From Colwellia polaris (GTDB lineage: Archaea > Nanohalarchaeota > Nanosalinia > Nanosalinales > Nanosalinaceae): 10,039 bases of DNA. Positions 1 through 10,039 of the stretch are shown piece after piece (position 1 is the first letter of the stretch; each line of letters opens with the position of its first letter). The stretch spans positions 1-10,039 of the forward strand of contig JBLGBK010000018.1 in assembly GCA_047617785.1 (NCBI GenBank). The letters are read 5' to 3'. The notes beneath the pieces are model-generated. The model was not told the origin of the DNA, ran no database searches, and saw only the letters and a program-made list of their open reading frames with translations. The translations under genes were made by a program, and so were the position numbers.

Positions 1-709
1 TACTGTACTGGGTATCCCCATCAATGACTGGGTTGAATGATACTTTACCCCATACAAGTGAGCCGGAGCTCTGTGTACCCGTTCCAACTTCTTGGGAGAG
101 ATCTGTGAAGCCGCAACGGCTGTAAAAATGGCCGTAGAAATCATTGGTTTGAAGTCGAATAAATGGATCTTCCAGTCCTTCAATACTGCTGGTAGTAGTT
201 GAAGTAGTAGTCTTGTTAAATACAGTGTTTGTTGATGGATCGCGCAGAGTTGAATACATTGTAATATTAGAACGCATCTGGAACTCGGAATTTGCTTTCT
301 CCACATTCTGGTTTTCAAAACTATAGCTGAATTCGTATCCTGCTCCTTCTGCTGCGTCTATAACTCTTCCACCCCAGTTAGTCAAGGAGGCATTTTGAGT
401 GTAGTTTAGTTCATACTGTCCAGTGGAGGCGTTGACGGTTGCGTGTGAAATATTTTCTCTTGGTTCTTCCATCGGTATTCCTTCGCTTACCATGTAGCTG
501 GTTACGCCAGACATTGCGCGATCGAAAGCGATATTGAAGGATCTGTCTTTATCGTCGTGTATTTTATCGTGGTAGAAACTTGCCTGTCCTATCAAGGCTG
601 CGTCGCCGTCCGTGCTTACGTCCAGTCCGGAGTATGGCATTATCATAAGTGAGAGCAATACTGCCGAACCCATTACTGCAAAGGTTGTGTAGGTCATTCC
701 TTTTCTCAT
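1..709 (-). CDS. Class III signal peptide-containing surface/pilus-associated protein, 3' end outside the window (at least 236 aa)
   Basis: Not in the ORF track. Hand translation from ATG at 709-707, which overlaps the upstream TGA as ATGA, is open to the window edge: MRKG|MTYTTFAVMGSAVLLSLMIMPYSG...TTTSTTTSSIEGLEDPFIRLQ...GDTQYS. It has a basic RKG followed by a hydrophobic stretch, several N-x-S/T sequons (NIS, NAS, NYT, NIT, NKT) and an SD-like GAGGTGG upstream. Confidence 0.85.
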   Translation of the reverse strand, partial: MRKGMTYTTFAVMGSAVLLSLMIMPYSGLDVSTDGDAALIGQASFYHDKIHDDKDRSFNIAFDRAMSGVTSYMVSEGIPMEEPRENISHATVNASTGQYELNYTQNASLTNWGGRVIDAAEGAGYEFSYSFENQNVEKANSEFQMRSNITMYSTLRDPSTNTVFNKTTTSTTTSSIEGLEDPFIRLQTNDFYGHFYSRCGFTDLSQEVGTGTQSSGSLVWGKVSFNPVIDGDTQYS

Positions 710-2607
710 TCTTCCCACCTCACAAGTGTAACTGTGGATGGACCCCATAAACGTCTTTCTCCACCGATAGTCACCGAACTTGGCTCAATATTTTCGAAGT
801 TAAAGAAGTCTCCAGACTTGTTCTCAAGTCTTTCAACAGCATCTTCTTGAGCAGCTTCTTCTGAATCAAATACAGGTCCATAACCTACTCTAGGCTCAAC
901 AAAAGTACTGTACTCAAACAGCGAATGTTCTAAGAAGCGGGTATCATCATTAGCGTCTGATAGTCTAACAAAGTTATTTTGATCAAAATCAACTATATCC
1001 GAGCCAATCGAGATAAAGGTCGGTTTGGTTTCAGATGAGCTGAAAATAGTCTGATAGGGGTCAGTCCCTGATTTCACCTCAACCTCAGTATTATCTGCAT
1101 CAAAAACTGACATATATAGGCCTACTTTGGAGAAGTAATCGTAATCCGTGAACTGTCTTTCATAGGTTACGGGATTTCCATTTTGTCCAAACTCTTCAGA
1201 TATAGTGGATTCATATTTTCCGTATCCAACATCTTCCTTATCTCTGTACTTGACTTCTATATATGAATGATCAGCAGTACCTGGGTTCGAATTCAGTACA
1301 GTATTCTGTCCTCCCCAGTAATTGCTTCCATCATGATTGATGAGTATCCTCATCAGGTTGCTACCAGGCTTAATTTGGTCGGTGATATCAACCGTGGTTT
1401 GGTACTGGCCATTAGCTGATTCTTGAATGACTACTTCCTCGTTTAGAGTGGCTTGAACATCCCACCCATCAGGAGATTCTTCCGTTCCAACACTGTCCGC
1501 ATCTAAAGTAAGATTAGCACTGATGATCTCGGAATTTCTGGGCAGTCCGAAGTTTTCTATGTCAACTATCCCGGATGATTGTTCTCCGCCTCCACCACCT
1601 CCAGAAAATTCTGAATAAACGTATTTAAGAGGGATTCGCCGGGTTTTAACTTCATCAGTCTGTAAGGCGGCTGTTTTAGTGTAATTTATTTCTACTCTGC
1701 TACCAGGATTGAGCAGGCCTCCTTCGAAGAAAATAGACTCTGTTGTATAGGTTATGCTGTTGTTTTGACCGATCTCTAGATATTCAGCAATGTTGTAGCG
1801 ATAGTAGCTGTTCCCGCCTTCTCCGCCTCCACCACTTTCTGAATCAAGTAGTTGCGCATTTGAATCAGGGACTTCATTACCGTTTACAAATACCTGGAAA
1901 TCATCACTTGGCTCTTGCTGTAAATTAAGATCTAGTGTTCCGGAATTGAGTGCAACGATATCATCGTCTTTTATAGGCACATATTTCGTTGTTTCAAATC
2001 TTCCATTTCCACTTCTTCCTGGAGCATCAGGTAGATTGCCTGAAGGTGAGATAGGGCTAATCTCAGTTCGTAGACTCTGGCCTTGAAGTACACTAGCGCG
2101 AGCACGATAGCCAGAGTTTGAAGCATTCAACCGGTGACCTGAGACAAGACTGGAAGCAGTAGTGACAAACTCTGTTTTCTCCGGGCGTTCAACATCCTGA
2201 GGTAGCGTGTACGTTTTTCCACCTTCTTTTATCTGTATCTGGTAGTTTCCATCCACTCGTGGACCAAAATATCTTTCAGTTGCTTCTTCTGCATAGCTGA
2301 AATTTCCTGCCGCCCATAGATAGGTTATGCCGTTAAGAACAGTTTTATCCATATCCTCTTCACTCATAACTGAGTTGGCGACCAGTTCATCTTGGAAGCT
2401 TTCATTGTATGTTTCAAAGCTTTCTGCGGACGCCAGACTCATAACATCTCTTGATTCTGTACGCAGATTGTTCGCTGCGTTGTCATCTTGGTTGTACTGA
2501 CTGTAGTTTGTACCCATCATAGTCAGCATCATAACGAGAGTTGCAGACATCACTGTCAATGCCAGTATTGCATCGAACGAGAAGTAGAATCCTTTTCTTA
2601 TCTCCAT
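706..2607 (-). CDS. Large type IV pilin-like protein/putative adhesin (class III signal peptide, beta-rich extracellular domains), 633 aa
   Basis: N-terminus IRKG|FYFSFDAILALTVMSATLVMMLT is a class III signal peptide with a hydrophobic helix. The body is rich in S/T/N/G, has many sequons (NYS, NES, NFS, NAS, NNS, NYT, NLT) and ends LWGPSTVTLVRW. It overlaps both neighbouring genes. Confidence 0.8.
   Translation of the reverse strand: MEIRKGFYFSFDAILALTVMSATLVMMLTMMGTNYSQYNQDDNAANNLRTESRDVMSLASAESFETYNESFQDELVANSVMSEEDMDKTVLNGITYLWAAGNFSYAEEATERYFGPRVDGNYQIQIKEGGKTYTLPQDVERPEKTEFVTTASSLVSGHRLNASNSGYRARASVLQGQSLRTEISPISPSGNLPDAPGRSGNGRFETTKYVPIKDDDIVALNSGTLDLNLQQEPSDDFQVFVNGNEVPDSNAQLLDSESGGGGEGGNSYYRYNIAEYLEIGQNNSITYTTESIFFEGGLLNPGSRVEINYTKTAALQTDEVKTRRIPLKYVYSEFSGGGGGGEQSSGIVDIENFGLPRNSEIISANLTLDADSVGTEESPDGWDVQATLNEEVVIQESANGQYQTTVDITDQIKPGSNLMRILINHDGSNYWGGQNTVLNSNPGTADHSYIEVKYRDKEDVGYGKYESTISEEFGQNGNPVTYERQFTDYDYFSKVGLYMSVFDADNTEVEVKSGTDPYQTIFSSSETKPTFISIGSDIVDFDQNNFVRLSDANDDTRFLEHSLFEYSTFVEPRVGYGPVFDSEEAAQEDAVERLENKSGDFFNFENIEPSSVTIGGERRLWGPSTVTLVRWEE
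715..721 (-). promoter_or_regulatory. Shine-Dalgarno-like site for the 1..709 gene
   Basis: Minus strand reads GAGGTGG, 5 nt before the ATG at 709, matching the archaeal GGAGGTGA consensus. It lies within the upstream coding sequence, so it could be coincidental. Confidence 0.5.
1582..1835. repeat. 17-bp exact direct repeat TTCTCCGCCTCCACCAC (1582-1598 and 1819-1835) encoding GGGGE
   Basis: Both copies read directly from the sequence; they are 237 bp (79 codons) apart and in frame within the 633-aa gene. Confidence 0.85.
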
Positions 2608-3125
2608 ACCACGTAGTTCATCTCCGCGTCCCGTAGTTCTCCCGACCGATTTACAGCCACCTGTCTGTCAATATTAATTACCGTGCTCGCCTGAGAGTAT
2701 TCATCTATACCCATATCGAAAGGATTTTCTTCTGCATCCCCTTCATAATCTAGAATTTCACCCGATTGTGGATCTCTGAACTCTAGTGTAAAGTTCTGTG
2801 TCTTTGTAAGATGTGTTTGGCGTTCGTAGCTCAGGTTGTGGAATGCTTCCAGCTTTTCCATTGATAGTATGTTTTCACCAGTTGCAAATCCAGGAATTCT
2901 TACCTCCACTCCTGTTTCTTCCCAATTATTCGGATAGCCTTCAGTTGTTACCATGAAATCAGCCGTACGTTCTGCCTGACTTCTCAGAAGGTCTTCTTGG
3001 TCGAAACTTTCTTGGCTGTCGACTCCGAGCCCCCACATAGTCATGAATAGTGTTATCATGGCGCCGAATATAGCCACTGAAGCCATGAAATCAGTCATGA
3101 ATGCTTGGGCTTTTCTACGATTCAT
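2598..3125 (-). CDS. Minor pilin-like protein with class III signal peptide, 175 aa
   Basis: MNRRKA|QAFMTDFMASVAIFGAMITLFMTMW: basic leader, Q at +1, D at +6, hydrophobic helix. Overlaps the upstream gene by 11 bp and the downstream gene by 10 bp; GGGGTG SD-like motif upstream. Confidence 0.8.
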   Translation of the reverse strand: MNRRKAQAFMTDFMASVAIFGAMITLFMTMWGLGVDSQESFDQEDLLRSQAERTADFMVTTEGYPNNWEETGVEVRIPGFATGENILSMEKLEAFHNLSYERQTHLTKTQNFTLEFRDPQSGEILDYEGDAEENPFDMGIDEYSQASTVINIDRQVAVNRSGELRDAEMNYVVWR

Positions 3126-3513
3126 TTATGTACACCCCTGACTCGTTGTGGATTACTCGGAAGGTGTTGGTTTCGTTAGTATTGAATTTCAATTCTCTGC
3201 CGCGGTAAAGTGTGGGCATCACGAAATTGCTGTTCTCCCAATTGACTACAAGCGTTGAGTTGATTACCCTGACATTATATGGTTCTCCTGCGATCCTGTT
3301 TGGTAGTATGAACCGTCTTTCATATCCTTCTCCCTGTGCTAACGCCATCTCTGCCTGAAATGCTACGTTCTTTCCCGCCATCTGCGCATCCATAGTATTG
3401 GAACGCATCGACACCTGATTCTGCTTCATTGTTACTGCAGACATCAGTATTACGAGTATAAGAAGCGAAAAGCTTACAAAAGACATAAATTCTATTGATG
3501 ACTGTCCTTTCAT
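3115..3513 (-). CDS. Type IV pilin-like protein (class III signal peptide, Q+1/E+5), 132 aa; start revised from 3555
   Basis: ATG at 3513 gives MKG|QSSIEFMSFVSFSLLILVILMSAV, a canonical KG|QxxxE motif (Class_IIIsignal/DUF361-like). It lies 5 bp after the upstream stop at 3519, avoiding the overlap implied by the 3555 start. Confidence 0.85.
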   Translation of the reverse strand: MKGQSSIEFMSFVSFSLLILVILMSAVTMKQNQVSMRSNTMDAQMAGKNVAFQAEMALAQGEGYERRFILPNRIAGEPYNVRVINSTLVVNWENSNFVMPTLYRGRELKFNTNETNTFRVIHNESGVYINES

Positions 3514-3518
3514 GGTTT

Positions 3519-3953
3519 TTAGTTCGCCTCTGAAATGTTTACCTGATCCTGCCACGCTGTAACACTTATCGGGTACTTGCCCTGTGAATCGGGAAGACCA
3601 TCACCAGTTTCTGCTATCTTTGTATCAAATATACGCGAGACATTAGTTCTTCCTGACGGAGTTTCTACTGTGTAGACAACTGCTCTGTTTTTTACGACAT
3701 ATGCTCTTTCAACGTTCCCGGGGACATCCATTGCGAACGTTCTCTTGGCTGGCGGCCCTGAAGCTTCTACTGTTGTAACTGCGGTTTCTAGTTTGTCCAG
3801 AGAGTTCTGAAGAGTGGCCGAGTCAGCACCTGTCTGAAGCTGGATTAGAGAGCTCTGAGCAGCCACTATGAATGGAGCCGCCATAAGCATTGCGAGTCCG
3901 AATACAGACAGGAATTCTATTGAAGACTGGGCTTTCCGAATTGCTGGTCGCAC
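3519..3953 (-). CDS. Type IV pilin-like protein (class III signal peptide, Q+1/E+5), first gene of the operon, about 144 aa
   Basis: RKA|QSSIEFLSVFGLAMLMAAPFIVAA. No in-frame ATG precedes the signal peptide. GTG at 3953 is preferred over TTG at 3962 because TTTTAA lies 25-30 bp upstream of it, which fits a leaderless transcript. Confidence 0.82.
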   Translation of the reverse strand: MRPAIRKAQSSIEFLSVFGLAMLMAAPFIVAAQSSLIQLQTGADSATLQNSLDKLETAVTTVEASGPPAKRTFAMDVPGNVERAYVVKNRAVVYTVETPSGRTNVSRIFDTKIAETGDGLPDSQGKYPISVTAWQDQVNISEAN

Positions 3954-3977
3954 ATTATACAATATATTAGAGACGGG

Positions 3978-4076: not shown

Positions 4077-6611
4077 ATGGAAAATGTTCTCTGGTTCGAA
4101 AACATAAACGCAGACGATACAGCCAAGGTCGGTGGAAAGAGCGCCAACCTGGGAGAGCTTCAGAACGAAGTTGAAGTACCTGTTCTTCCCGGATTCGCTA
4201 CAACCTCCGATGCATACGACCGTTTCATCAAAAAGACGGAGCTAAAAGATAAAATAGAAAGATTACTAGACGGCCTGGACAACGACGATGTTACAGACCT
4301 CCAGAAAAGAGGTGAAAAAATCCGGGCGCACATCAAGGAAGCAGAAATGCCTCAGGACTTGAGAGACGACTTTATCGAAAGCTACGAGGACCTTGAAGAA
4401 AAACTAGGTGTCGAAAATCCCGAAGTAGCTGTGCGTTCTTCAGCAACAGCAGAAGACCTTCCTGGAGCTTCATTCGCAGGACAGCAGGAGACCTACCTGA
4501 ACGTATCCGGCAAACAGGACCTGATCAAGAGAATTAAGGACTGTTATGCCTCGCTGTTTACTAACAGAGCTATCAGTTATCGAGAGGACAAAGGCTTCAA
4601 CCACTTTGACGTTAAGCTTTCAGCAGTAGTCCAGAAGATGGGGCGTTCCGACATCGGAGCAGCAGGAGTAATGTTCACACTAGACCCTGACTCCGGTTTC
4701 GACAACGTAGTAACCATCAACGGAAGCTACGGACTAGGAGAATACGTCGTACTTGGAGAAGTCAATCCAGATGAGTTCACAGTATTCAAGGAGAACCTAG
4801 GAATCATCGAGAAGAACAAAGGAGAGAAAGAAATCAAGCTTGTACGGAACGAAGATCATGAATCAGGTGACGGACAGGAAAACATCGAGAAGGAAGTACC
4901 TCAGAGCGACCGCAACAGCTTCTGTATAACCGACAATCAGGTTAAAGAACTGGCTAAGTATGCAATGCAGATCGAGGATCACTACGACAAGCCTATGGAT
5001 ATCGAATGGGTTCTCGACGGCCAGACAAATGAACTATACATTGTACAGGCCCGACCTGAAACAGTTCAGGCAGAGAAAGACGAAAACGTAATAGAAGACT
5101 ACAAACTGAAAGAAGAATCGGAAGTACTGCTTGAAGGTTCTGCAATCGGATCGAAGATTGGGAACGGAAAGGCGCACGTGCTTGATTCTCCGAAACAGAT
5201 CGACCAATTCGAGGAAGGAGAAGTGCTTGTAACTGACATGACCGATCCTGACTGGGAACCAATCATGAAGAAAGCAGGAGCAATCATAACAAACAAAGGA
5301 GGGCGAACTTCGCACGCAGCGATCGTTTCACGTGAACTAGGCGTGCCTGCCGTCATTGGTACGGAAACCGCAACATCATCGATCGCAGACGGCAAAGAAG
5401 TCACAGTCGACTGTTCAAGCTCAACAGGAAAGATTTGGGATGGAAAACTCGACTTCGACGTCGAAAGACATCACCTAGACGAAGTACCTGATACTGATAC
5501 AGAGGTACAGGTCAACATAGGAGAGCCTTCAGAAGTCTTCCATGTAGCACAGTTACCTGTAGATGGAGTAGGCCTCGCACGTGAAGAGTTTATCATCTCT
5601 TCACACGTTGGAGAACACCCACTAAAGCTGGTTGATGAAGGCAGAGGTGACGAATATGTCGAAGCACTACGGTCCGGAATCGGAAAGATCGGAGCAGCAT
5701 TCTATCCAGATCAGGTAGTTGTACGGCTTTCTGACTTCAAGTCAGACGAATATGCAGAGCTTGAGGGTGGAGAAGAGTACGAACCGGATGAAGCCAATCC
5801 AATGCTTGGTTTCAGAGGCTCTTCACGTTACTACGACGATCTTTTCCAGAAAGCTTTCGAGCTTGAATGCAAAGCACTGCGTAAATGTGTTGACGAGCTT
5901 GGGCTCGACAACCTGACGATCATGGTTCCGTTCTGCCGTACAATCGAGGAAGCGAATAAGGTTAAGGCCAAGATGAAGGAGTACGGACTTGATAAGGGAG
6001 ATATCGAAGTCTACGTTATGGCAGAGGTACCTTCCAATATTATCCGTGCCGAAGAGTTCGCAGAAGTATTCGACGGATTCAGCGTTGGTACAAATGACCT
6101 GACACAGCTAACCCTTGGAGTTGACAGAAACAGCGACAAGCTGAAAGGCCTGTTCGATGAAAGAGACGAAGCTGTAAAGCAGTCAGTTAGTCGTTTGATT
6201 GAGAGAGCTCATAGACATGGCAACCACGTTGGTATATGTGGAGATGCTCCTTCAACCCACGATGGTTATGCAGAGTTCCTTGTAGAAGAGGATATCGATG
6301 CTATCAGTGTTTCACCTGACGTCGCTCTTGAGACTATCCTAAAGGTTGCAGATGTTGAGGAAGAGCTGGGTAAATCTTCAGGTAAAGGCACTGAGGTCGA
6401 GGTAAACGTTGATTTCCAGGTAGGTGAAACTGCTGGAAGGATCTACGACCGGCTTGATGAGCATGGACGTGCGACAGTTGAGAAGTTGAAGAGCTGGACT
6501 AATTCTGATATTGATGAGCGTCTTCTTGAGCAGGGTCTTGGATGGCTTGCAAAGGAGGATAAGATTCAGGTCCGGGAAGAAGATGATAAGACTGTTTACG
6601 AGCTGAAGTAG
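4077..6611 (+). CDS. ppsA: Phosphoenolpyruvate synthase (pyruvate, water dikinase) with C-terminal winged-helix extension, 844 aa
   Basis: Motifs appear in the expected order: VGGKSANLGEL, VAVRSSATAEDLPGASFAGQQETYLN, PMDIEW, YIVQARPETV, GGRTSHAAIVSRELG (phospho-His413, codon 5313-5315), EANPMLGFRG, FSVGTNDLTQLTLGVDR, VGICG. Confidence 0.96.
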   Translation: MENVLWFENINADDTAKVGGKSANLGELQNEVEVPVLPGFATTSDAYDRFIKKTELKDKIERLLDGLDNDDVTDLQKRGEKIRAHIKEAEMPQDLRDDFIESYEDLEEKLGVENPEVAVRSSATAEDLPGASFAGQQETYLNVSGKQDLIKRIKDCYASLFTNRAISYREDKGFNHFDVKLSAVVQKMGRSDIGAAGVMFTLDPDSGFDNVVTINGSYGLGEYVVLGEVNPDEFTVFKENLGIIEKNKGEKEIKLVRNEDHESGDGQENIEKEVPQSDRNSFCITDNQVKELAKYAMQIEDHYDKPMDIEWVLDGQTNELYIVQARPETVQAEKDENVIEDYKLKEESEVLLEGSAIGSKIGNGKAHVLDSPKQIDQFEEGEVLVTDMTDPDWEPIMKKAGAIITNKGGRTSHAAIVSRELGVPAVIGTETATSSIADGKEVTVDCSSSTGKIWDGKLDFDVERHHLDEVPDTDTEVQVNIGEPSEVFHVAQLPVDGVGLAREEFIISSHVGEHPLKLVDEGRGDEYVEALRSGIGKIGAAFYPDQVVVRLSDFKSDEYAELEGGEEYEPDEANPMLGFRGSSRYYDDLFQKAFELECKALRKCVDELGLDNLTIMVPFCRTIEEANKVKAKMKEYGLDKGDIEVYVMAEVPSNIIRAEEFAEVFDGFSVGTNDLTQLTLGVDRNSDKLKGLFDERDEAVKQSVSRLIERAHRHGNHVGICGDAPSTHDGYAEFLVEEDIDAISVSPDVALETILKVADVEEELGKSSGKGTEVEVNVDFQVGETAGRIYDRLDEHGRATVEKLKSWTNSDIDERLLEQGLGWLAKEDKIQVREEDDKTVYELK

Positions 6612-6710: not shown

Positions 6711-6793
6711 GCCGGGGTAGCCAAGTGGCCAAAGGCGACGGACTTAAGATCCGTTCCCGTAGGGGTTCCCGGGTTCAAATCCTGGCCCCGGCA
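6711..6793 (+). tRNA. tRNA-Leu(UAA), no intron, CCA not encoded
   Basis: Acceptor stem GCCGGGG/CCCCGGC plus discriminator A6793; D arm GCC...GGC; anticodon stem ACGGA/TCCGT with loop CTTAAGA (TAA at 6745-6747); long variable arm TCCCGTAGGGG; T arm CCGGG-TTCAAAT-CCTGG. Confidence 0.97.
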
Positions 6794-6855: not shown

Positions 6856-6868
6856 GCAAACATTTAAA
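6856..6868 (+). promoter_or_regulatory. Putative BRE/TATA promoter of the dikinase-like unit
   Basis: GCAAACA-TTTAAA, with the TATA at -31 to -26 from ATG 6894. Confidence 0.6.
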
Positions 6869-6869
6869 T

Positions 6870-6892
6870 TTGTTACTAACTAATAGTAACAA
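6870..6892. promoter_or_regulatory. Perfect inverted repeat TTGTTACTA-N5-TAGTAACAA, candidate operator
   Basis: 9-bp arms at 6870-6878 and 6884-6892 fill the space between the TATA box and the ATG. Confidence 0.65.
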
Positions 6893-6893
6893 T

Positions 6894-8237
6894 ATGAGGG
6901 ATCGGATAAAGCACATAGGAAAACCGGTACTCACACCGGAAACCACAGACTGGGGAGGAAAAGGAGCCAACCTCCTAGAACTCGCACAGTTCGAGAATGT
7001 CCCAAAGGGCTTCGTGGTCAACGCAGAAGCCTACGACAGATTCACTAATCAGCAGGAAATACAAAATCTAGAATGGATCAACGAAGGTAACGTAGACCTA
7101 GACTGGATCGAAGAAAACCCAGAAACAGAGCTTGAAGAAATTCAGAACACCACTCAAGAAGTGTTTCTAAACAATAATTTACCAGCAGAATACAGAGAAG
7201 ACATAACTTCAGCAATACACCAATATGAAGGAGAAATGTTTGCACGTAGCAGCGCAGTAAACGAGGATGGAGAAGAAAACTCCGGAGCGGGCAGACTAGA
7301 GAGCTTCGGACCAATGAGCAGAGGAGAAATACTTGAAGGAACCAAAAAAGTATTCGCGTCAGCTTTCGACGAGAAAGCAATCAAATATTTGACCGAAAAC
7401 AATATAGACAGCTTTGGAGGCGTAGCAGTAGTAGTACAGGAAGCAGTCGACCCTGCTTTCGGAGGAGTAATGTACAGTTCTGATCCAAACGGCAACCCCG
7501 ACAAAGTCTACATTGAAGCAAATGAAACACCGTGGCAAGTAGTAGACGACGACATAAGAGACATTATACACGTAGATGCTGATGAAATCCCAAGCGGGAG
7601 AAGTGGAGAAGGAAACTTCCAATACAAGAACAACAAAGGGAATAGCGAGCCATTACCAGATGCAGAACAAGTTATGGAAATTTCAGGAGCCGGTAAAGAC
7701 ATAGAAGACGTTTATAACTCGCCCATGGATATAGAATTTGCCTACAATCAGGAAGGCGAACTTTACATACTTCAAGGACGTCCTATCACGGTTGAAGGAT
7801 ATGGAGAACCTGATTTCAATATACCAGACGATATACGTGATATAGATAATGAAGAAGTTCTTGCAGAAACTAGTATCGTAAGAAACGCAGGAATACTAGA
7901 AGAATTACCAGCAGTAGTAATCGATGACGCAAATTCATCAGGAATGTATCAAACAGAAGGCAGTCTTGAAGAATACAACAATCAATTCTCAGAGGGATAT
8001 GTAGTTGTAACACCTGTAATGAACGAAAATATTGAAAACAGGACAGATAACGCAGCAGGACTTGTAGCAAGTGAAGGAGGAAAAACAAGTCATGCATCAA
8101 CAGTAGCAGATGAAAGTGGAATGCTTTACATGGGTGCGCTTGAAAGCGAACCTCAGGAATACTTAGAACATGGAGACAATGTCTACATGGCAGTCAACGG
8201 ACACGAAGGAGTCTTTGCACGAGGTGAAGAATTCTAA
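6894..8237 (+). CDS. PEP synthase-like protein with PPDK_N (ATP-grasp) and phospho-His swivel domains only, 447 aa; start revised from TTG 6870
   Basis: WGGKGANLLEL, VPKGFVV, FARSSAVNEDGEENSGAG, AVVVQE, GGVMYS, PMDIEFA, LYILQGRPIT, EGGKTSHA (His400, codon 8091-8093). It ends at the end of the swivel domain and has none of the NPMLG/GTNDL/GICG barrel motifs. ATG 6894 fits the TATA spacing. Confidence 0.88.
   Translation: MRDRIKHIGKPVLTPETTDWGGKGANLLELAQFENVPKGFVVNAEAYDRFTNQQEIQNLEWINEGNVDLDWIEENPETELEEIQNTTQEVFLNNNLPAEYREDITSAIHQYEGEMFARSSAVNEDGEENSGAGRLESFGPMSRGEILEGTKKVFASAFDEKAIKYLTENNIDSFGGVAVVVQEAVDPAFGGVMYSSDPNGNPDKVYIEANETPWQVVDDDIRDIIHVDADEIPSGRSGEGNFQYKNNKGNSEPLPDAEQVMEISGAGKDIEDVYNSPMDIEFAYNQEGELYILQGRPITVEGYGEPDFNIPDDIRDIDNEEVLAETSIVRNAGILEELPAVVIDDANSSGMYQTEGSLEEYNNQFSEGYVVVTPVMNENIENRTDNAAGLVASEGGKTSHASTVADESGMLYMGALESEPQEYLEHGDNVYMAVNGHEGVFARGEEF
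8221..8227 (+). promoter_or_regulatory. Shine-Dalgarno site for the 8238 gene
   Basis: GAGGTGA lies 10 nt before ATG 8238. Confidence 0.65.
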
Positions 8238-10039
8238 ATGGCAGCAGCCGAAAACGTAAATACTACAGATCCTGAAGAACAAACTCAGGAAGTCTACCCT
8301 TCCAGAAGCCAAGAAGACCTTGAATCAATTATCAATGAGATGGAAGAAGTTGAGAACGAAGAGATAGAAGAATCAGTAAGAGAGATAAGCAGTTTAGCAG
8401 ATGGAAATCTTCGTGAAGGACGTACAGGAGTCACAGAACACTTTGAAGCGCCTATTCGATCACTTAACAACCCTACAGAAAACACTGTAGAGCTTGAAGA
8501 CGGCACCACCGCTGAAGTCGTAGGAGAAGAATACTTTCTAGGCCAGAACCTTCCCGGTTTCCAGGATGTAGGAAACATCAAATGGTGGACCATAATGGAC
8601 GAGAACTCCTACAGAGAGGAGACCAGAAACGGAGGGCTTGAACACCTCCAGCTTAACAACGAAGGAGAAATCCACAGCTACAGAGTAGAACTGGATGGAG
8701 AGCCTCTTAACCCAGAGCAGGTACAACGACTGGAACGAAACCTGAACATTCGAGCACAAGGACAAGTAACAACAGAAAACAGAGTTGTAGAAGACATAAT
8801 TCAGTACAGCTCCAGAGAAGAAATTCTGGAGAATGAAGACCTTACAGAAGACGAATACATTCAACAAGTTAAAGAAGCACAAGAATACGGACTGATAAAC
8901 GAAGATGGAGAACTCACTTTGAAAGGATTCATTACAGGTCAAGACATGGAAGCCAGAGATCTCAGGGCTCTTGACAATGCCTCTAACGGAGCAGAAACAA
9001 TTGAAACTTCTACACAAGGAGTTCTGGATAACTTTTCTGAAGGAAGCTTTAACGAGAGTATAGAACTCAGATTCACAGGTTTTGCAAGAGATCTTGAAAA
9101 CATGCGGTTAGAAGCTGACTCATCAGACGGAGAAATAACCGTTCCAAACTCCGGATTCGGACGCCACATAAGCATAGATGAAAACGGAATGAGAATAGGT
9201 TTAGAAAACAATAACGTTCCTGCCTCTGCAGTTCTCAATGAATACTTCCCAAATGAAGTAGTGGAAAACGGAGAAGTAAATATACCGGAACTAGAACAGC
9301 GCAACCCTGATCTAGCAGGAAGCCTTATCCAGAGAGCAGAACTTTCCAACAACAATGTAGAATACTCAGATGCTTCAGGTCAAGCATCACTAAACCTATA
9401 CACTCCCGAAGATGAACCTGAAGAACCTCACCGAGAAATGCTGGAATCTGAGTTTAGTCTAAGCATTGAAGAACTAAGCGAAGAGCTAGAGAACAACTCC
9501 TCTATCGAAGTTGAGGAAGGAAACATAACAATAACTTATGAAGGGGACGAAATACCGGAGAGACTTGTTAAAGGAATAGAAAGGGAAAAAAGCCCTAAAT
9601 GGGAAGATGGCGAAATCGACATAAGTCATGGTCTAAGCGCAATTAATTCAACGGCGCAACTAGTACTACATCAATTTGAGGAAGAGCTTGATGAGAAACA
9701 CGACTATAACACTTCCTCCTCACGCGTATACGAAAGAATATCAGCCTATCAAGACATCAGCACAGAACTAGATCAAAAGATCCAGGAGCTTGAGGAAACA
9801 GGCATAATCAAGACAGAAGTTATCGAAAGAGAACCTGCAAAAGTCAGTCTCAACCCTGAAGACAAAGAAGACTATCGACTTATAGATCGGCTTAGTAGCG
9901 AAACAGATCTAGATCTTCCTTCAGAAATCAAAGAGCTAAGCACCGAGAACCTGGAAACGGAGACAGCACGGATAGGAAGAGATATGCGCGATATAGAGGA
10001 TCTCGACGAAGAACTTGAAGAATACAAAGAAGAAATAAC
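8238..10039 (+). CDS. Large, very acidic hypothetical protein (at least 600 aa, runs off the window) with possible winged-helix segments
   Basis: Not in the ORF track. The ATG directly follows the upstream TAA (TAAATG). Hand translation is open to the end: MAAAENVNTTDPEEQTQEVYPSRSQEDLES...KEAQEYGLINEDGELTLKG...DISTELDQKIQELEETGIIKTEVIEREPAKVSL...LDEELEEYKEEI. No signal peptide or transmembrane helix is seen. Confidence 0.9.
   Translation, partial: MAAAENVNTTDPEEQTQEVYPSRSQEDLESIINEMEEVENEEIEESVREISSLADGNLREGRTGVTEHFEAPIRSLNNPTENTVELEDGTTAEVVGEEYFLGQNLPGFQDVGNIKWWTIMDENSYREETRNGGLEHLQLNNEGEIHSYRVELDGEPLNPEQVQRLERNLNIRAQGQVTTENRVVEDIIQYSSREEILENEDLTEDEYIQQVKEAQEYGLINEDGELTLKGFITGQDMEARDLRALDNASNGAETIETSTQGVLDNFSEGSFNESIELRFTGFARDLENMRLEADSSDGEITVPNSGFGRHISIDENGMRIGLENNNVPASAVLNEYFPNEVVENGEVNIPELEQRNPDLAGSLIQRAELSNNNVEYSDASGQASLNLYTPEDEPEEPHREMLESEFSLSIEELSEELENNSSIEVEEGNITITYEGDEIPERLVKGIEREKSPKWEDGEIDISHGLSAINSTAQLVLHQFEEELDEKHDYNTSSSRVYERISAYQDISTELDQKIQELEETGIIKTEVIEREPAKVSLNPEDKEDYRLIDRLSSETDLDLPSEIKELSTENLETETARIGRDMRDIEDLDEELEEYKEEI

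Follow-up and report, generated by a model that had tools for sequence, protein, structure and literature searches.

The 10,039-nt contig analyzed here in full and called the window below (JBLGBK010000018.1, contig C18 of a nanohaloarchaeal genome of 787 kb in 22 contigs, 96.6% complete) carries near its right end two abutting genes. One encodes a relative of phosphoenolpyruvate (PEP) synthase (PpsA) that lacks the PEP/pyruvate-binding barrel and is referred to as the dikinase; the other encodes a large protein of no recognized family, referred to as the partner. We hold it highly probable that the two proteins are functionally coupled. A more specific reading, to which we give an even chance, is that they may form a heteromeric dikinase of the swivelling-histidine (His-swivel) type, in which the partner would supply in trans a new acceptor-binding third domain and the acceptor would not be a protein. 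The N-terminal domain of the partner is the best candidate for this third part because the two genes co-occur strictly, gene order varies around a constant pair, and in a set of fused proteins the domain stands in the barrel position. The features of the pair, in window coordinates, are as follows:

6863–6869, + strand: TATA-like box (TTTAAAT), about 28 nt before the ATG at 6894, which implies a leaderless or near-leaderless mRNA
6870–6878 and 6884–6892, no strand assigned: inverted repeat TTGTTACTA-N5-TAGTAACAA (9 + 9 nt, 100% complementary), lying after the TATA-like box and before the start codon; may act as an operator or form a 5' hairpin
6894–8237, + strand: barrel-less ('headless') dikinase, 447 aa; ATP-grasp domain at about nt 6954–7799, swivel domain at about nt 7989–8237, His400 codon at 8091–8093
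8221–8227, + strand: Shine-Dalgarno-like GAGGTGA, 10 nt ahead of the ATG at 8238 and still inside the dikinase gene, near its end
8238–10037, + strand: partner open reading frame (ORF), encoding residues 1–600 of a protein estimated at 850 aa; the 3' end is open, cut by the contig end
8238–8765, + strand: beta-rich domain of the partner (residues 1–176), delimited by AlphaFold2 model and conservation; His68 codon at 8439–8441, Glu135-His136 codons at 8640–8645
8769–8951, + strand: winged-helix domain of the partner (residues 178–238), with three helices and a beta-hairpin wing

The dikinase and its junction with the partner gene

The ORF call for the first gene starts at a TTG (6870–8237, 455 aa). 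The true start is most likely the ATG at 6894, giving 447 aa, because it agrees with the conserved start in the orthologue alignments and lies at the distance given above from the TATA-like TTTAAAT. A Pfam scan detected PPDK_N (PF01326; residues 21–302, E = 4.6e-45) and the PEP-utilizers mobile domain (PF00391; residues 366–413, E = 8.1e-7), and matched neither the PEP-utilizers_C barrel nor any other domain in the 447-aa protein. The chain ends a dozen residues past the last swivel strand, where PpsA goes on into the linker and the barrel. A first-pass annotation of the window had described this ORF as PEP-synthase-like, devoid of a substrate domain and using a catalytic His400, and the domain content agrees with that description. 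The histidine (T-S-H motif, counted from the ATG at 6894) is invariant in all 8 barrel-less orthologues, and so are the ATP-grasp motifs GGK, RSS..ED and Q.RP (8/8).

The best NCBIfam match of the dikinase was PEP synthase NF005057 (E = 1.7e-47), with 162 bits versus a cut-off of 598. It scored 155.9 bits against TIGR01418 (cut-off 739.75), i.e. below the equivalog threshold, and its top PDB match was again a PEP synthase (8a8e, E = 1.6e-23). Models of pyruvate phosphate dikinase (PPDK) matched far more weakly (TIGR01828, 1.6e-10; NF004531, 4.9e-5). Close homologues carry the database names 'pyruvate, water dikinase' or 'PEP/pyruvate-binding domain-containing protein'. In a phylogenetic tree based on 27 ATP-grasp plus swivel regions, 10 PpsA sequences, taken from the same phyla as the barrel-less enzymes, were split from 17 barrel-less sequences by a branch of length 2.43 (support 100/100); therefore, the PpsA encoded nearby in the window is not a recent duplicate. 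The barrel-less clade could be divided into three supported groups, which follow phylum and gene order. Loci L019 and L029 are on long branches of this tree, and the fragments from L030, L052 and L053 were left out by the coverage filter.

The stop codon of the dikinase gene (TAA, 8235–8237) touches the start codon of the partner gene, giving TAAATG. Sequences resembling a Shine-Dalgarno (SD) motif, namely GAGGTGA, GGAGGTGA or GGAGG(A/G), are located at a similar distance in L017, L018, L019 and L029. Of the 6 Nanohaloarchaeota loci examined, at least 5 have a stop and start that abut or overlap, together with an SD-like motif. Translational coupling of the two genes is predicted. The module also has a putative promoter of its own, supported by the TATA-like box, which is kept at equal distance in three loci (the window, L017 and L018) and has a TA-rich equivalent in L029. 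A sigma-70 promoter scan was set aside as inapplicable to an archaeon, and among 18 sequencing runs none of RNA was listed as containing the window stretch, of whose words 71–91% are present in the sediment metagenome runs X1–X14. The inverted repeat stops one base short of the ATG at 6894. GTTACT-N3-8-AGTAAC was found once in the 787-kb genome (0.44 expected), and GTTACT-N4-AGTAAC is also found before the L029 orthologue (28% dikinase identity); in L017 and L018 the palindrome is imperfect. Both the palindrome and the TAAATG junction with its SD motif had been pointed out in the first-pass annotation, and both are real, the former being a perfect repeat.

The partner family and its association with the dikinase

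For the 600 residues of the partner encoded in the window, no match was obtained in Pfam at E ≤ 0.01, and none in NCBIfam or PADLOC; the dikinase was likewise without a PADLOC match. The closest full-length orthologue, P0006 (848 aa), shares 61% identity and is colinear with residues 1–586 of the window protein, so that about 250 aa of the partner are missing from the window. When three full-length orthologues were compared with all 22 contigs by tblastn, only the window copy was found and the rest of the ORF was not present on another contig. Full-length orthologues, many of them metagenomic, range from 505 to 912 aa (858 aa in genome G024, 683 in G016, 505 in G015, 725 in G051 and 802 in G056). 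Since the window ORF breaks off after 600 aa and a full PpsA gene lies just upstream, the pair might be taken for a simple split PEP synthase with its barrel further on, past the contig end. We consider this extremely improbable and rejected it: PEP-utilizers_C was found in none of 38 full or partial members of the partner family (Pfam, E ≤ 0.001), P0006 contains no Pfam domain, and the orthologues end in LDP(M/L)NF..YE..ETEF.Y instead of a barrel. Other Pfam matches in the scanned family at the same threshold were one weak winged helix-turn-helix and one Lactamase_B_2, the latter in a marginal member. What had been noted for the visible part of the ORF, i.e. that no barrel is recognizable, thus applies to the full-length orthologues as well.

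The acidity of the partner, also remarked on in the first reading, is real (Asp + Glu 25%, pI 4.1) but not special to it; since the neighbouring PpsA and dikinase are acidic too (21% each), it is a trait of the proteome. The family is rare. A profile of the N-terminal domain retrieved 46 clusters (50% identity) at E ≤ 0.001, and 24 at E ≤ 1e-30, from 1.84 billion representative proteins. Its members could be divided into two groups: 1) very acidic and long proteins (500–912 aa), and 2) proteins of 270–900 aa that are not acidic, one of which is from a Woesearchaeota metagenome-assembled genome (MAG). They combine an N-terminal domain of about 250 aa, which is conserved, with a variable middle, and the halophile forms have a long, fast-evolving tail ending in the C-terminal motif given above, which the hydrophobic-(D/N/H)-P..F ending of some short non-halophile members tentatively resembles. 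The family motifs are H..IRxLNxP, GEE(F/Y)FG, D(V/I)xD(V/I)xWW, GEHL and NG..L. His68, Pro79 and Glu135 are invariant in the 46 aligned sequences, with Arg59, Ile73 and His136 (45/46 each), Gly154 (45/45), Gly96 and Asp110 (43 each) and Arg74 (42) being near-invariant.

Of the 70 genomes of the phylum, 7 (G000, G024, G016, G015, G062, G051 and G056) gave strong matches to the partner profile, and an eighth yielded a mere 44-residue match (E = 8.7e-4). The same 7 genomes contain the orthologue-grade barrel-less dikinase, five as full frames of 457–486 aa (494–616 bits) and two, in G056 and G062, as fragments at contig ends; the remaining matches to the dikinase profile in the 70 genomes were full-length PpsA frames with at most 223 bits. 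Both genes are absent from two genomes of the same genus (74% and 89% complete). Among 20 loci with a separate partner gene, 19 have it adjacent to the dikinase gene: 7/7 in Nanohaloarchaeota, 3/4 in Woesearchaeota/Nanoarchaeota MAGs, the fourth locus being cut 122 nt upstream of the partner gene, and 9/9 in metagenomes. The 4 Woesearchaeota/Nanoarchaeota loci were obtained by a pattern scan of 185,579 species genomes, for which an 8-sequence alignment was used, and the 9 metagenome loci by a scan of metagenome contigs. L035, which equals L019 in ORF lengths and scores, was counted once, and L048 and L049 (26% identity by tblastn, E = 6e-5 and 1e-4) were left out of all counts, the partner profile having given no confirmation for L048, which is beside a WD40 protein. 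In a sample of the Woesearchaeota-type phylum, the pair was found in 1 of 301 genomes, namely the starting genome. Gene order is either dikinase-partner or partner-dikinase, the flanking genes differ, and the pair alone is common to the loci. The conserved neighbourhood in DPANN (Diapherotrites, Parvarchaeota, Aenigmarchaeota, Nanoarchaeota plus Nanohaloarchaeota) relatives, by which the first-pass annotation had proposed to check the pair, is thus borne out. The DPANN host guessed in that annotation agrees with the named relatives of the genome.

Several arrangements at individual loci are worth noting. In L018 (genome G016), a 238-aa ORF (P0003; 8629–9345, − strand) is located between the dikinase and partner genes, the stop and start codons overlapping; a Gly/Ala-rich hydrophobic stretch is present in it, and neither a family match nor a counterpart in the other loci was found. 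Tandem short (about 350 aa) and long (800–900 aa) partner paralogues follow one dikinase in L031 (6001–9781), L036 (4001–7476) and L038 (1647–3045), which may be read as a layout of one charger and two partners. A gene for a HAD-like hydrolase is directly upstream of the dikinase gene in three non-halophile loci (L031, 3887–4519; L036, 1934–2614; L038, 2–277), with weak HAD_2 matches in Pfam (E = 8.5e-5 and 5e-3, below the cut-off). In 5 non-halophile loci the pair is joined by a third conserved gene family, A8, with products of about 200 aa:

A8 family: L031, 2643–3852; L032, 5007–5618; L036, 1251–1871; L037, 1201–1773; L044, 588–1238

It occurs twice in L031 and lies between both genes in L044. 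A8 gave no Pfam match at E ≤ 0.001 and no meaningful PDB sequence match, and the genome of the window contains no copy.

Two AlphaFold2 models of the partner were built, both covering a 255-aa construct with the beta domain and the winged helix together. With 46 sequences the model had a pLDDT of 86.9 and a pTM of 0.83, and with 4 sequences a pLDDT of 70.9. Residues 1–176 were modelled as a helix, seven or eight strands and a long helix, while residues 178–238 superpose on solved winged helices. With either model, Foldseek found nothing in the PDB at E ≤ 0.001, and BFVD gave the same result. The lists from VIA-align were filled by winged-helix matches, so the beta domain was barely probed by them; for this domain there was no convincing relative, and the recurring rows were just weak matches of the M23/LytM type. 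The 'duplicated hybrid motif' fold groups M23/LytM with EIIA-Glc of the phosphotransferase system (PTS). The best match of the partner in a sequence-profile search of the PDB was not below E = 0.3, and residues 1–178 gave no usable match in the ESM Atlas. A new fold is not claimed. Two candidates were set aside: i) scattered restriction-enzyme recognition domains returned by the ESM Atlas for P0031 at 0.89–0.92, with low recognition (1681), which were rated as probably wrong, and ii) repeated winged helices in the partner tail, for which the profile matched 1 of 30 tails at iE ≤ 0.05 versus 0 of 30 shuffled ones.

Swivel-partner fusions and readings of the pair

Four bacterial-looking proteins with a swivel fused to the partner domain were found: P0053 (541 aa), P0054 (565 aa), P0055 (527 aa) and P0056 (599 aa). 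Fusions of the P0053/P0054 type are from three metagenome loci, two with the same sequence; one of them looks bacterial, having a gene for an extracytoplasmic function (ECF) sigma factor near it. P0053 and P0054 align to about positions 293–517 of the PPDK model, i.e. the last grasp subdomain, the linker and the swivel His (TIGR01828; E = 7.9e-54 and 7.8e-46), and the partner domain that follows occupies the place of the PEP/pyruvate barrel of PPDK. This domain was aligned directly for P0053 alone (residues 344–529 against P0031: BLASTP 6e-17, 29% identity; hhalign E = 5.7e-5, probability 66%), and P0055 and P0056 match the P0053 region at E of about 1e-52. As to single-chain forms with all three domains, a search with residues 300–541 of P0053 returned only 3 proteins, of 527–599 aa, and none was found when P0031 was compared with longer proteins; we rate the latter result as weak evidence. 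Behind the fusion genes there is a conserved ORF of about 200 aa (L045, 4557–5159; L047, 4504–5088) with a weak match to a TrmB-type helix-turn-helix (E = 1.7e-3); it is unrelated to A8 (hhalign probability 0.08%).

His-swivel dikinases are modular, and the third domain sets the target: pyruvate, rifampin, phenols, glucans or glutamine. To our knowledge, all characterized ATP-grasp plus swivel enzymes pass the phosphoryl group on to an additional domain or subunit that carries the receiving site. In the heteromeric dikinase envisaged here, the 447-aa protein would bind ATP in its ATP-grasp domain and take the beta-phosphoryl group onto His400, as expected from the chemistry of the family. Because the dikinase has no acceptor site of its own, the phosphohistidine would dock on the N-domain of the partner (about 250 aa), which would stand in for the barrel of PpsA/PPDK or the rifampin-binding domain of rifampin phosphotransferase (Rph). 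From there the phosphoryl group would pass to the acceptor, most likely a non-protein one. Arg59, His68, Arg74, Glu97/98, Asp110 and Glu135-His136 of the partner may serve binding and catalysis, as the conserved Arg/Asp/Glu/His set looks like a catalytic site, and accessory roles would fall to the winged helix and, in the halophile forms, to the long tail. The N-domain is a candidate acceptor-binding site by virtue of its position and conservation. That the partner either supplies the acceptor site in trans or is itself the acceptor had been suggested from the window sequence; the co-occurrence, the missing barrel and the fusions support such a scheme, and neither version was refuted by the in silico analysis.

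The following points weigh against an acceptor site on the partner: i) the beta-rich domain has no recognized fold or ligand pocket, ii) His68 lies in a stretch of lower confidence in the model (residues 61–70, pLDDT 64) and, together with the winged helix, would fit a regulator that accepts phosphate equally well, iii) the fusions lack the first 290 or so residues of the nucleotide-binding domain, and no such piece was found within 4 kb of them, iv) the fusions have Lys in place of His136 (GEKL), and v) the patchy occurrence (7/70; 1/301) says little about function.

The second of these points leads to a protein phosphorelay, in which ATP would drive the dikinase as a histidine kinase and the partner would itself be phosphorylated on His68 or His136, thereby switching the winged helix or the tail, e.g. 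in autoregulation of the operon through the palindrome. We regard this as unlikely, though as a serious alternative. It would account for the invariance of His68 (46/46, albeit in the stretch of lower confidence), for the winged helix, and for the GTTACT..AGTAAC sequence between the TATA-like box and the ATG, which occurs once in the genome and is met again ahead of the distant L029 orthologue. Regulators with PTS regulation domains (PRD), which are phosphorylated on His by the PTS, likewise count in its favour. However, the presumed recognition helix is acidic or neutral even in the non-halophile members of the alignment, and the best fold matches include helicase winged helices that do not bind DNA. 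Conservation of Arg, Asp and Glu near the His residues suits a catalytic site better than a simple acceptor, the fusions place the partner domain where PPDK has its acceptor site, and the expenditure of two phosphoanhydride bonds would be unusual for signalling. A precedent is VadK, which autophosphorylates on His422 and binds enzymes of the methylcitrate cycle, although transfer to a protein is not demonstrated in the available part of that paper (PMC13400623).

The patchy occurrence, the variable neighbourhoods, the fast evolution of the long tail and the lack of a recognizable catalytic fold in the partner would also be compatible with a scaffold, regulator or localization factor for a kinase acting elsewhere, or with an accessory or defence-type module. 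We judge this rather improbable, as neither protein matches PADLOC, the dikinase has no other acceptor domain, and the swivel-partner fusions and the conserved polar residues favour direct chemistry at the partner domain.

Going beyond the heteromeric dikinase, the partner N-domain could be an unrecognized acceptor module, wired in trans in DPANN archaea and in cis behind the swivel in bacteria, a generalization that we find doubtful. In its boldest version, His68 would be phosphorylated and the winged helix would act on GTTACT..AGTAAC, giving an archaeal phospho-His relay that would sense ATP/AMP and, if true, be independent of two-component systems and the PTS. In another version, a polymer or a host-derived compound would be phosphorylated, which, if true, could matter for the symbiotic life of the cells.

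Genomic context and comparison with known systems

The rest of the window contains the following features:

4077–6611, + strand: PpsA, an ordinary full-length PEP synthase in which Pfam detects PPDK_N, mobile and PEP-utilizers_C domains, followed by a DUF2582 winged helix at the C terminus; context, outside the module
6711–6793, + strand: tRNA-Leu (anticodon TAA), between PpsA and the module; context only
2–3962, − strand: five ORFs in a row, of 249 (open-ended), 633, 175, 146 and 147 aa

The DUF2582 winged helix comprises residues 781–840 of PpsA (E = 2.7e-13), and no similarity between it and the partner was found when this was looked for. PpsA sits elsewhere in other genomes, its adjacency to the module in the window not being conserved. 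A PpsA-like match in another genome (G067:C10:26116–27405) is inside an open frame of 1290 aa, the usual length being 760–930 aa. The five ORFs on the minus strand have short charged N-termini followed by a hydrophobic stretch and may be read as resembling archaeal type IV pilin-like proteins; the single Pfam match among them was a weak one to DUF7266 (E = 7.7e-6, below the cut-off).

In a full-text literature search on DPANN, dikinase/swivel and Nanohaloarchaeota PEP synthase topics, no description of this pair was found. In the available part of the Ca. Nanohalococcus genome paper, PpsA is assigned three loci for the step from PEP to pyruvate, and the single unmethylated GDGCHC site of the genome is reported to fall in a 'ppsA' coding sequence (PMC10266531). 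At least one Ca. Nanohalococcus protein is of the barrel-less type (P0069, 483 aa, with only PPDK_N on record). For annotation, it follows that the dikinase and its orthologues are incapable of the PEP-to-pyruvate step when acting alone, because the pyruvate/PEP site is absent. If the heteromeric reading is true, a separately encoded third module of no known family would widen both the chemistry and the architecture of the His-swivel dikinases. As small pairs suited to expression, those of non-halophiles (about 350 aa plus 450 aa; 357 and 452 aa in L034) would lend themselves to a search for the acceptor, while the rarity of the family (46 clusters) limits the immediate reach of the finding.

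PpsA (EC 2.7.9.2; TIGR01418, NF005057) is the closest sequence relative of the dikinase and has the same ATP-grasp domain, swivel and T-S-H histidine. In contrast to PpsA, the dikinase lacks the barrel, scores far below the family cut-offs and belongs to a clade separate from the PpsA of the same genomes.

In the split dikinases HpeHI, CreHI and phenylphosphate synthase PpsAB, according to the available part of the source, the swivel His carries the phosphoryl group to an acceptor site on another polypeptide (PMC12167813). These relatives of rifampin phosphotransferase resemble the window pair in having separately encoded subunits. The division differs: in them, as far as that text describes it, one subunit is the ATP-grasp domain; its counterpart combines the substrate domain with the swivel (PMC12167813), whereas in the window a single chain carries both ATP-grasp domain and swivel, leaving the putative acceptor domain on its own. 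No swivel is present in the partner, the NCBIfam Rph models were not matched, and Rph chains were absent among the fold-search matches listed. The bacterial fusions, with swivel plus partner domain and without a full ATP-grasp domain, do resemble the split mode of HpeHI, CreHI and PpsAB.

Barrel-less dikinases as such are already known through VadK (Rv1127c) of Mycobacterium tuberculosis, a PPDK without the barrel for which autophosphorylation on the swivel His was shown (PMC13400623). Like the dikinase of the window, VadK is described in the available text as having the ATP-binding and phospho-His domains only. The two differ in descent, VadK being derived from PPDK and the window dikinase from PpsA (NF005057 at 1.7e-47 versus TIGR01828 at 1.6e-10 and NF004531 at 4.9e-5). 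They also differ in their surroundings: the proposed partners of VadK are methylcitrate-cycle enzymes, and the part of the paper available describes no dedicated adjacent partner gene (PMC13400623). PPDK itself (EC 2.7.9.1; TIGR01828) provides the frame for the bacterial fusions, in which the barrel position is taken by a non-homologous beta-rich plus winged-helix domain.

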